Of a stretch of 54,948 bases of DNA, positions 16,478-18,347 are shown piece after piece (the first letter of the stretch is position 1; each line of letters begins with the position of its first letter). Made by a program: the position numbers and the translations under genes. The DNA is from Candidatus Actinomarina sp. (GTDB taxonomy: Bacteria; Actinomycetota; Acidimicrobiia; Actinomarinales; Actinomarinaceae): NCBI GenBank assembly GCA_041234785.1, contig JBEROH010000002.1:1-54948 (forward strand), read 5' to 3'. A model generated the notes under the pieces. The model made no database searches, was not told the DNA's origin, and saw only the letters and a program-made list of their open reading frames with translations.

Positions 16478-17326
16478 TTGTATTTAGTAAACGGCACTGA
16501 AGTAGAAAAAGTTAATTTTAATCTTCCTATAGAAAACTTAGCTGTATGGAGAGGAGATGGTGTATTCGAGGCTATTAAGCTTCACGATGGTTTCCCTTTT
16601 GGTTTAAACAGACACATTGAGAGATTAAAGGATTCTTGTAAAAAACAATACTTTAATGGTGTAAATTTTGAATTAGTAAAAAATTCTATTATTGAAATTT
16701 CATCAAAATATAAATCCGGATATGTAAGAGTATTAATTTTGAGAAACGACTCGGATGAAGGATTTGATATATTTTCTTTTTACCAAAACCCACAAGCTAT
16801 TCCTCCAGTTATTACCTTAGAATCTCAATTCGCCCCGTGGCATCCTGGTGGAGATTATGAAGTTTATCCTGACAGCCTAATTGGATCTAAATCAACTTCG
16901 TATGCATATAATGTAAGACAAACAAGAGAGGCTAATCAAAAAGGATATACTGACGCATTGCTGGTAAACAGTAAGCAAGTAATTTTAGAAGGCCCAACTT
17001 TTTCAATTGGTTGGATTGATGGGAATGAAGTTTTTGTTCCAGATTTAGGTTTAGGAATACTCAACTCAATTACTAGACAATATTTATTAAAGTTTGGAGA
17101 TGAAAAAAAACTGAAAGTTAATTGTGCAAGAATTACTCTTCAAGAAATATATAAAGTTGACTCTGTATTTATACTATCTACTGCAAAGCATGCAGTATTT
17201 GTGTCAAAAATAGATGACAATTTATATTCAGAATCTCCTGTTATTAAAGATATTCAAGAGTTATACAAACAAGAAGTATTATTAGAAAAAGCTAGATTCC
17301 AGGAGGTGATTAATGAGACTCACTGA
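16478..17326 (+). CDS. fold-type IV PLP-dependent enzyme (branched-chain/D-amino-acid aminotransferase or ADC-lyase family)
   Basis: 282 aa with family-typical blocks (WRGDGVFEAI, GLNRHIERL, ILEGPTFSIGWI). TTG start. Its 3' end overlaps the selD start. Confidence 0.7.
   Translation: MYLVNGTEVEKVNFNLPIENLAVWRGDGVFEAIKLHDGFPFGLNRHIERLKDSCKKQYFNGVNFELVKNSIIEISSKYKSGYVRVLILRNDSDEGFDIFSFYQNPQAIPPVITLESQFAPWHPGGDYEVYPDSLIGSKSTSYAYNVRQTREANQKGYTDALLVNSKQVILEGPTFSIGWIDGNEVFVPDLGLGILNSITRQYLLKFGDEKKLKVNCARITLQEIYKVDSVFILSTAKHAVFVSKIDDNLYSESPVIKDIQELYKQEVLLEKARFQEVINETH
17301..17306 (+). promoter_or_regulatory. Shine-Dalgarno (AGGAGG) for selD
   Basis: Perfect AGGAGG 6 nt upstream of the ATG at 17313. 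Confidence 0.6.
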
Positions 17327-18347
17327 GTATTCTCATGGTTCTGGTTGAGCTTGTAAACTCTCACAAGGAGAACTTGCTCAGGTACTGAAGCAATTAAAAC
17401 AACAAAAAATCGATAATCCAAACGTAATTGTTGGGTTAGATTCGCCAGACGACGGTGGTGTTATAAAAATTGGAGAAAATATTCAATTAATTCAAACAGT
17501 TGATTTTTTTAATCCAATATTAGACGATCCATATGATTGGGGTAGAGTTGCGGCTGCTAATGCATTATCTGATGTGTACGCAATGGGTGGATATCCTATA
17601 TCTGCTCTTCAATTGATAAGCTGGCCACGTTCAGATATTGGTTTTGATATATTATCAAAAGTGATTGAAGGTGGAGCCAAAGTAATGAAAGATGCAGGAT
17701 GCAACATTATTGGTGGTCATAGCATTGATGATAAAGAACCAAAGTATGGATTTGCAGTAACTGGAATTATAGAAGGAAAAATTTATACAAAAACTAATCT
17801 ACAAAAAGGCCAAAGGTTAATTTTAACTAAACCTCTAGGATCAGGAATTATTGCAACTGCAATAAAAAAAGGAATTGCTGATAGTGCCTCAATCAAAGAG
17901 ATAACAGAAGTTATGACTACATTAAACCACAATGCATTATCTATTGCTAAAGAATTACAAGCAGAGGCTATCACAGATATAACGGGTTTTGGTTTGTTGG
18001 GTCATTTAAGTGAAATGTTGATTGATGAAGAACTTTCAGCAACAATTTTATTGAATAGAGTTCCGATTTTAAGTTCTGCAAAAAAATATTTTAACAAAGG
18101 TATTTATCCATCTGGTAGTCAAAGAAATTTAGACTCAATTTTAAATCAAATTTCATTTGATAATTTGTCTTTAGATGAGATTAAGTACTTAGCAGATGCA
18201 CAAACAAGTGGAGGTCTTCTTTTCTCTATTGCGAGTGATTCGATGTTTAATGTCGAAGATATTAAAAAAAATTACAATGTTGATCTTTGGGAAATAGGTG
18301 AAATTACCTCAAGATATAACAAAAAAATAAATATCATTAATAATTAA
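17313..18347 (+). CDS. selD: selenide, water dikinase (selenophosphate synthetase), Sec-containing form; TGA at 17346-17348 read as selenocysteine
   Basis: The track ORF (17574-18347) is only the C-terminal part. The same frame from ATG 17313 reads MRLTEYSHGSG-TGA-ACKLSQGELAQVL...VGLDSPDDGGVIKIG...[31 protein letters not shown]. This is the SelD N-terminal loop, with TGA at the catalytic Cys/Sec position. Confidence 0.9.
17346..17348 (+). other. UGA selenocysteine recoding site within selD
   Basis: In-frame TGA flanked by GSG and ACK, matching the G-x-G-(C/U)-x-x-K SelD motif. A tRNA-Sec gene is present in the same window. Confidence 0.85.

Follow-up and report, generated by a model that had tools for sequence, protein, structure and literature searches.

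A predicted selenocysteine-type SelD in Candidatus Actinomarina, with an in-frame UGA at codon 12 and a proposed element for its recoding

The selD locus, its product and the UGA at codon 12

The stretch of DNA analysed here, referred to below as the window, comprises 54,948 nucleotides (nt) from Candidatus Actinomarina sp. (GenBank assembly GCA_041234785.1, contig JBEROH010000002.1), and the gene under study is selD, encoding selenide, water dikinase (selenophosphate synthetase), the twelfth codon of which is an in-frame UGA. A mechanical list of open reading frames (ORFs) opens this gene at GTG 17574 because no ATG, GTG or TTG codon occurs in the selD frame between 17349 and 17573. A first-pass annotation of the window, made from the letters alone, had noticed that this leaves an apparent gap of about 250 nt in an otherwise gapless run of genes and had read the segment as the hidden start of selD, with an AGGAGG motif, an ATG at 17313, a TGA at 17346-17348 and a product of 344 amino acids (aa). 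On re-reading, every one of these positions proved correct, the translation MRLTEYSHGSG-U-ACKLSQGELAQVL... (U standing for selenocysteine, Sec, at the TGA) was reproduced, and the flanking genes were found to overlap selD at both ends.

The start codon (ATG, 17313-17315) and the stop codon (TAA, 18345-18347) enclose a single in-frame TGA, and since a further in-frame TGA (17307-17309) shuts the frame 5' of the ATG, 17313 is the only possible selD start. The genes around selD are closely packed with no gaps between them: the upstream aminotransferase gene, itself ending in TGA, overlaps the selD start by 14 nt, and an alpha/beta hydrolase gene begins at 18347, sharing 1 nt with the selD stop, to be followed by a family 4 glycosyltransferase (GT4) gene starting at 19264. 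The coordinates of the features are collected in Table 1.

With residue 12 entered as Cys, the conceptual protein surpasses the cut-offs of two SelD profiles, TIGR00476 (selD), which it matches over residues 2-309 at 368.8 bits (125 required), and NF002098, at 345.6 bits (299 required); the selD reading is not a product of chance. The two Pfam domains of the family follow one another in order, AIRS (PF00586) at residues 46-153 and AIRS_C (PF02769) at residues 164-337, and the profile matches take in the stretch 5' of 17574. Among known structures, the protein matched SelD of E. coli (3u0o, E=1e-74, over residues 1-332) and of Aquifex aeolicus (2yye/2zod, E=2e-69). The alignment to 3u0o places SHGSG-U-ACK of the window over SHGAG-C17-G-C19-K20 of E. 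coli, such that U12, C14 and K15 correspond to Cys17, Cys19 and Lys20, and the UGA therefore occupies exactly the catalytic Cys/Sec site of SelD. Both the full-length SelD identity and the catalytic position of the TGA had been put forward in the first-pass annotation, and both are borne out by these comparisons. From its sequence, the product is predicted to be a 344-residue selenophosphate synthetase carrying Sec in the catalytic N-terminal loop G-S-G-U-A-C-K.

For comparison, one genome per GTDB species was scanned, which yielded 80 loci. The nearest of these belong to Candidatus Actinomarina, the Actinomarinales and the OCS155 cluster, with SelD proteins 55-68% identical to that of the window; GC-rich Acidimicrobiia, Marinimicrobia and Bacillota come next. 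Because its SelD is only 55-68% identical to those of the GTDB species representatives, the window represents a separate species or genus. Whether orthologues carry TGA or a Cys codon at the position of residue 12, a question that the first-pass annotation had raised, is answered by the alignment: TGA is found in 67 of the 80 loci, all 37 Actinomarinales among them, the others being GC-rich Acidimicrobiia, Marinimicrobia and other metagenome-assembled genomes (MAGs). The remaining 13 loci are Bacillota, with TGT or TGC in 11 and TGA in two more. The reading that we favour, with a rough probability of 0.93, is that 17313-17573 forms the opening stretch of one intact selD, the codon-12 UGA of which would be decoded as Sec by means of the tRNA for selenocysteine (tRNA-Sec), SelB and a hairpin within the coding sequence (CDS), designated hairpin 2 below.

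Table 1. Coordinates of the selD locus and of further features in the window
Feature	Position	Strand	Description and basis
Class IV aminotransferase gene, aminodeoxychorismate-lyase-like (pabC-like)	16478..17326	+	Upstream gene; Pfam PF01063, 130 bits
Shine-Dalgarno AGGAGG	17301..17306	+	6 nt 5' of the start codon; read in the sequence
selD, complete CDS (selenide, water dikinase)	17313..18347	+	344 codons and TAA, predicted Sec at codon 12; translation, profiles
In-frame UGA	17346..17348	+	Codon/residue 12, equivalent of E. coli SelD Cys17; alignment
Hairpin 1	17359..17371	+	UCUC / loop ACAAG / GAGA; position conserved, loop variable; folding with the UGA region unpaired
Hairpin 2, proposed bacterial SECIS	17374..17393	+	Triloop GUA 17382-17384; folding, covariation, Sec/Cys contrast
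tRNA-Sec gene (selC)	44411..44503	-	Anticodon UCA; ARAGORN; Rfam RF01852, 70.8 bits
WhiB-like Cys-rich protein (by eye)	5352-5612	+	86 aa; apparent ORF-track gap
Cys-rich protein	9404-9607	-	67 aa; apparent ORF-track gap
Zinc-ribbon-like protein	27173-27403	+	76 aa; apparent ORF-track gap

Decoding machinery and a proposed insertion element

The window carries a gene for tRNA-Sec, the match of which to Rfam RF01852 lies well above the gathering score of 47 and spans the full length of the model (1-91). The gene stands 27 kb from selD, between a small ORF on the hflX side (44056-44376) and an unannotated ORF (44537-45160), and did not figure in the finding of the first-pass annotation. A preprint of April 2026 reported selC, selA and selD, and no ybbB, in 84 of 84 complete Actinomarina genomes, predicted the Actinomarina selD to encode a selenoprotein, and noted a selB candidate in all 84 with a KofamScan score of 268 against a threshold of 306, a shortfall that its authors read as divergence (bioRxiv 10.64898/2026.04.03.716425). 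Solely from this literature, we infer that selA and selB lie elsewhere in the genome from which the window derives.

The bacterial selenocysteine insertion sequence (SECIS) follows a published consensus of a loop of 3-9 nt with G followed by G or U, a stem of at least 4 base pairs (bp) and a spacing of 16-37 nt (PMC13188914). Two small hairpins lie 3' of the selD UGA, and the second of them, hairpin 2 (UUGCUCAG-GUA-CUG-a-AGCAA), falls within this consensus in loop, stem and spacing alike: its stem has 8 bp (3+5) with one bulged A, its GUA triloop sits on the codon for Val24, and the loop starts 33 nt after the UGA.

The comparative evidence comes from 35 non-redundant Sec-type sequences, in which 81.4% of the cells of the two-hairpin structure are paired, a share that drops to 24-45% on sliding the 3' partners; the covariation score is 0.323 for this structure as against 0.05-0.13. 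Helix 2 is 92.9% paired and shows compensatory changes, most clearly at pair 45-55 (UA 17, GC 11, AU 2, CG 2) and pair 48-52 (GC 21, AU 11); helix 1 is 73.8% paired, with changes on both sides at three of its six pairs. The G and U of the hairpin 2 loop are almost invariant, and no conserved G is present in the loop of hairpin 1.

Furthermore, hairpin 2 distinguishes the two types of selD. With an uninterrupted stem of 4 bp or more around a GUN triloop at nt 37-39 as the criterion, 65 of 70 Sec-type genes possess it and one of 11 Cys-type genes does, the latter mostly lacking it even though they encode the same A/S-Q-V-L peptide. Within the Bacillota, both Sec-type genes have a perfect hairpin of 7-8 bp, and their Cys-type relatives do not. 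The element recurs in the same codon register in Sec-type selD from Acidimicrobiia and Bacillota; out of three Marinimicrobia lineages in the sample, one has it (L063/L071) and the other two (L062 and L067) are without it. In the GC-rich Acidimicrobiia (L038-L060), a third, closing stem (GUGCA...UGCAC) encloses both hairpins between nt 6 and 54 after the UGA, giving a three-helix structure of -17 to -28 kcal/mol; this closing stem is missing from the AT-rich Actinomarinales. RNAalifold, applied clade by clade, returned the two-hairpin structure both for all Acidimicrobiia combined and for their GC-rich members taken alone. On these grounds we propose the conserved, covarying hairpin 2 as the SECIS of Sec-type selD. 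The implication drawn in the first-pass annotation, namely that a Sec-decoding system exists in this genome, is thereby indicated from two sides, by the tRNA-Sec gene in the window and by the SECIS-like hairpin.

Of the Cys-type genes, that of Paenibacillus darwinianus (L078) retains a 6-bp hairpin, GCGCAG-GUG-CUGCGC, at the SECIS position, and L065 retains most of one; both may be relics of a recent conversion from Sec to Cys.

The decoding would then proceed as follows. Ribosomes would initiate at ATG 17313 through coupling to the upstream gene, which overlaps selD; SelB carrying Sec-tRNA(Sec), the product of the gene at 44411-44503, would bind hairpin 2 (17374-17393) within the CDS and deliver Sec, so that the codon-12 UGA would be read as selenocysteine. 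The resulting SelD would make selenophosphate for SelA. As SelD supplies the very selenium donor that its own synthesis requires, the enzyme would be needed for making itself, as has likewise been noted for other Sec-type SelD/SPS2 enzymes.

Several observations weigh against this interpretation. Neither selA nor selB was found in the window when its 37 largest ORFs were searched with Pfam and NCBIfam, a scan covering every ORF long enough (about 390 aa or more) and about 20 others. Hairpin 2 is weak in this AT-rich genome (-6.2 kcal/mol alone, -9.3 together with hairpin 1), and alone it lies above the stability limit of the bacterial SECIS consensus, which is a minimum free energy (MFE) of -7.5 kcal/mol or lower. 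The 50-81 nt next to the UGA do not exceed shuffled sequence in stability (z = -1.1 and -0.8), hence single-sequence folding by itself lends the SECIS no support; RNAalifold on the mixed alignment of 35 sequences gave no consensus pairs; and Rfam at gathering thresholds recovered the tRNA-Sec and no SECIS family. The contrast between Sec and Cys types is not phylogenetically independent, every Cys-type locus being from the Bacillota. The unconstrained MFE fold favours a different helix, UGAGC (17346-17350) with GCUCA (17376-17380), which sequesters the UGA. Finally, we infer the insertion of Sec itself and the binding of SelB to hairpin 2 from sequence.

A motif expression for the pyridoxal phosphate (PLP) site of SelA, applied to every locus, matched a single one, from the Bacillota (L077).

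Another possibility is that the UGA is recoded with SelB reading something other than hairpin 2, be it hairpin 1, the UGA-containing helix or an unrecognised signal suited to a divergent SelB. The weakness of hairpin 2 and the distance of its loop from the UGA lend this some credence, as does the divergent, sub-threshold selB candidate reported for Actinomarina; moreover, the UGAGC:GCUCA helix reaches an ensemble probability of about 0.73 on naked RNA and is the structure that RNAalifold returned for the Actinomarinales alone. Yet that helix is broken without compensation in four Actinomarinales (L017, L032-L034) and absent from the GC-rich relatives, and in all of these hairpin 2 is kept through compensatory or register changes. 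It was consequently rejected as a functional element; it is also impossible while a ribosome occupies the UGA, is not supported by covariation, and may be incidental. Hairpin 1, for its part, lacks the conserved loop G, and hairpin 2 is the only element that tracks the Sec/Cys state. A different signal is therefore considered unlikely, and the proposal of hairpin 2 as the SECIS is retained.

Conservation of the hidden N-terminus and other readings of the TGA

A more conventional account would take the TGA as a real stop, the upstream 250 nt as decaying or non-coding, and the gene as a pseudogene or a truncated gene making a short protein from GTG 17574. The ORF list does open there, and this genome ordinarily uses TGA as a stop. 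The pattern of conservation speaks otherwise. In comparison with ten Actinomarinales orthologues, the 87 codons 5' of 17574 are the best-conserved part of selD, with 70-78% aa identity as against 50-67% over the rest of the gene, and synonymous changes make up 47-61% of the codon differences in codons 1-87. Given such high identity and so large a synonymous share, the sequence comparison indicates that these 87 codons are translated and under purifying selection. No other stop and no frameshift was found in the N-terminal region of the 67 TGA-bearing orthologues.

The initiation signals are conserved likewise. A GGAGG-like motif stands at an equal distance before the start codon in the Actinomarinales orthologues (L001-L037), whether this is ATG (14 loci), GTG (13) or TTG (10), and all carry TGA at codon 12. 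Almost all of them also keep the neighbourhood, in the order nadE - aminotransferase - selD - hydrolase - GT4 - rmuC, with each gene recovered at 31-37 of the 37 loci. Initiation at residue 88 would, moreover, yield a protein without the catalytic Sec/Cys-Lys loop and with its N-terminal AIRS domain short of the first half. A pseudogene or truncated gene is accordingly regarded as very improbable. The first-pass annotation had argued from conservation on both sides of the stop for recoding rather than decay; that conservation proved strong among orthologues and free of scattered stops or frameshifts, and its interpretation draws support from the retained TGA, the tRNA-Sec gene and hairpin 2.

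An alternative genetic code, in which TGA specifies Trp (code 4) or Gly (code 25), might be suspected in an AT-rich genome such as this (about 31% GC), all the more so as the 120 closest database proteins (P0001-P0120), without exception, are full length and show W at residue 12. The use of TGA elsewhere in the window is hard to reconcile with such a code. Fifty-seven ORFs, delimited by the standard stops, cover the window and leave no gaps; 10 of these ORFs end in TGA, often at ATGA gene junctions, whereas a genome with sense TGA would fragment under table 11. Across the 57 genes (17,790 codons), no in-frame TGA occurs other than that of selD, which is true by construction, the other 56 being TGA-bounded ORFs; independent support for TGA as a stop comes from the gapless cover that these ORFs provide. 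All 237 Trp codons of the window genes are TGG, and the only tRNA with a UCA anticodon that was found is tRNA-Sec. Furthermore, Trp or Gly at the position of Cys17 would be expected to inactivate SelD.

The W of the database proteins shows that the TGA was translated under code 4. Most of the 120 entries also run through a true TGA stop, giving the C-termini ...NWW or ...SKW. The upstream aminotransferase gene has likewise been lengthened in its database copy (loci L081 and L082), to 292 aa instead of 282, 10 residues too many. The database Trp is a gene-caller artefact, code 4 having been picked for short AT-rich contigs, and constitutes no evidence for Trp; an altered code is scarcely tenable. 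Least probable of all, to the point of being negligible, is a sequencing or assembly error for TGT or TGC, a single base away from TGA, for two independent assemblies of the same species from different sequencing runs have identical DNA here, TGA included, and the 67 independent genomes with TGA comprise both single-cell genomes and MAGs.

As for the rest of the window, a search for further selenoprotein genes by way of TGA-bridged ORFs, ORF-track gaps and a scan for TGA with a hairpin gave no credible candidate. The three other gaps of this kind are occupied by small genes of an ordinary sort, none with an in-frame TGA (Table 1). The order selD-hydrolase-GT4 is conserved across the Actinomarinales, and neither a SenA nor an EgtB homologue appeared near the GT4 gene. 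The GT4 glycosyltransferase itself (19264-20394, + strand) was tried as SenB of the selenoneine pathway and rejected, its 43.6 bits against a cut-off of 300 falling below many generic GT4 models. At the far end of the window, a bacterial member of the indoleamine 2,3-dioxygenase family (52295-53410, + strand; 258.8 bits to PF01231) adjoins a photolyase-related DPRP protein (50734-52230, - strand).

Relation to known systems and biological meaning

Sec-type SelD has been known since the 1990s and is a textbook selenoprotein; the selD genes of A. aeolicus and Haemophilus influenzae are reportedly of this type by nature (Guimaraes 1996, as cited by the Actinomarina preprint described above). The Sec-containing enzymes of these two bacteria belong to the same family as that of the window, with the same two-domain AIRS architecture and the UGA at the same position in the N-terminal glycine-rich loop. 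In comparison with the characterised SelD enzymes, to which its identity is about 45% or less, the window protein differs only in lineage and composition, stemming from a streamlined actinobacterium of about 31% GC. E. coli SelD (3u0o) shares the loop SHG-x-G-[C/U]-x-C-K and Lys20 and, having Cys at position 17, needs neither recoding nor a SECIS. Across prokaryotes, 19% of selD genes are of the Sec type, with Sec at one constant position (PMC4561486), and SelD ranks amongst the most widespread bacterial selenoprotein families and those most abundant in marine metagenomes (PMC9312934).

The closest known parallel to hairpin 2 is the SECIS of E. coli fdhF, likewise a stem-loop inside the CDS and 3' of the UGA, whose small apical loop contains G-U. 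The fdhF element reads GCAGGUCUGC, the GU of its loop standing at nt 23-24, and the hairpin of the GC-rich relatives (GCAG-GUC-CUGC) comes near to this sequence. The window differs in that its loop lies 33 nt after the UGA instead of about 19, with an extra small hairpin in between, and in that the bulge of hairpins of its kind is on the 3' side or absent, the stem being AU-rich and weak (-6.2 kcal/mol).

A Sec-type selD in this organism is thus a correct finding and an already known one, including for Actinomarina (2026). The preprint described above delimited an Actinomarina selD family, 'MRLT*', of 342-346 aa, and the gene of the window agrees with it in N-terminus, length and bacterial order; a Cys form was stated to occur 'presumably' in about half of the Actinomarina genomes, and Rfam models found no SECIS (bioRxiv 10.64898/2026.04.03.716425). 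Here, in contrast, TGA stands in all 37 representatives and the Cys form in none, and a SECIS-like hairpin is defined. GTG or TTG opens selD at 23 of the 37 loci here, and the 'about half' of the preprint, whose grouping was by N-terminal residues, may be an undercount. What is added is modest: the lack of a Cys form among 37 species, the SECIS-like hairpin, and the sharing of this hairpin by Acidimicrobiia, Bacillota and one Marinimicrobia lineage.

In practical terms, the finding amounts to an annotation correction. Standard gene callers either cut selD to 257 residues or resort to code 4 and place a spurious Trp at the catalytic site of SelD, an error present in all 120 of the closest public entries.

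It is conceivable, if rather doubtful, that Sec-type SelD has become fixed throughout the order, possibly with no Cys paralogue, as a strictly self-dependent selenium circuit in genomes of 1.1 Mb, and that its weak SECIS serves as a tuner. How often translation reads through the UGA, and how often it terminates there, would then be decided by the contest between the weak hairpin and the UGA-sequestering helix, in step with the amounts of Sec-tRNA(Sec) and SelB available. As regards the biology of the organism, and in line with published accounts on both points, a very small and abundant marine actinobacterium would retain the costly Sec machinery, the first enzyme of the pathway being itself selenium-dependent.

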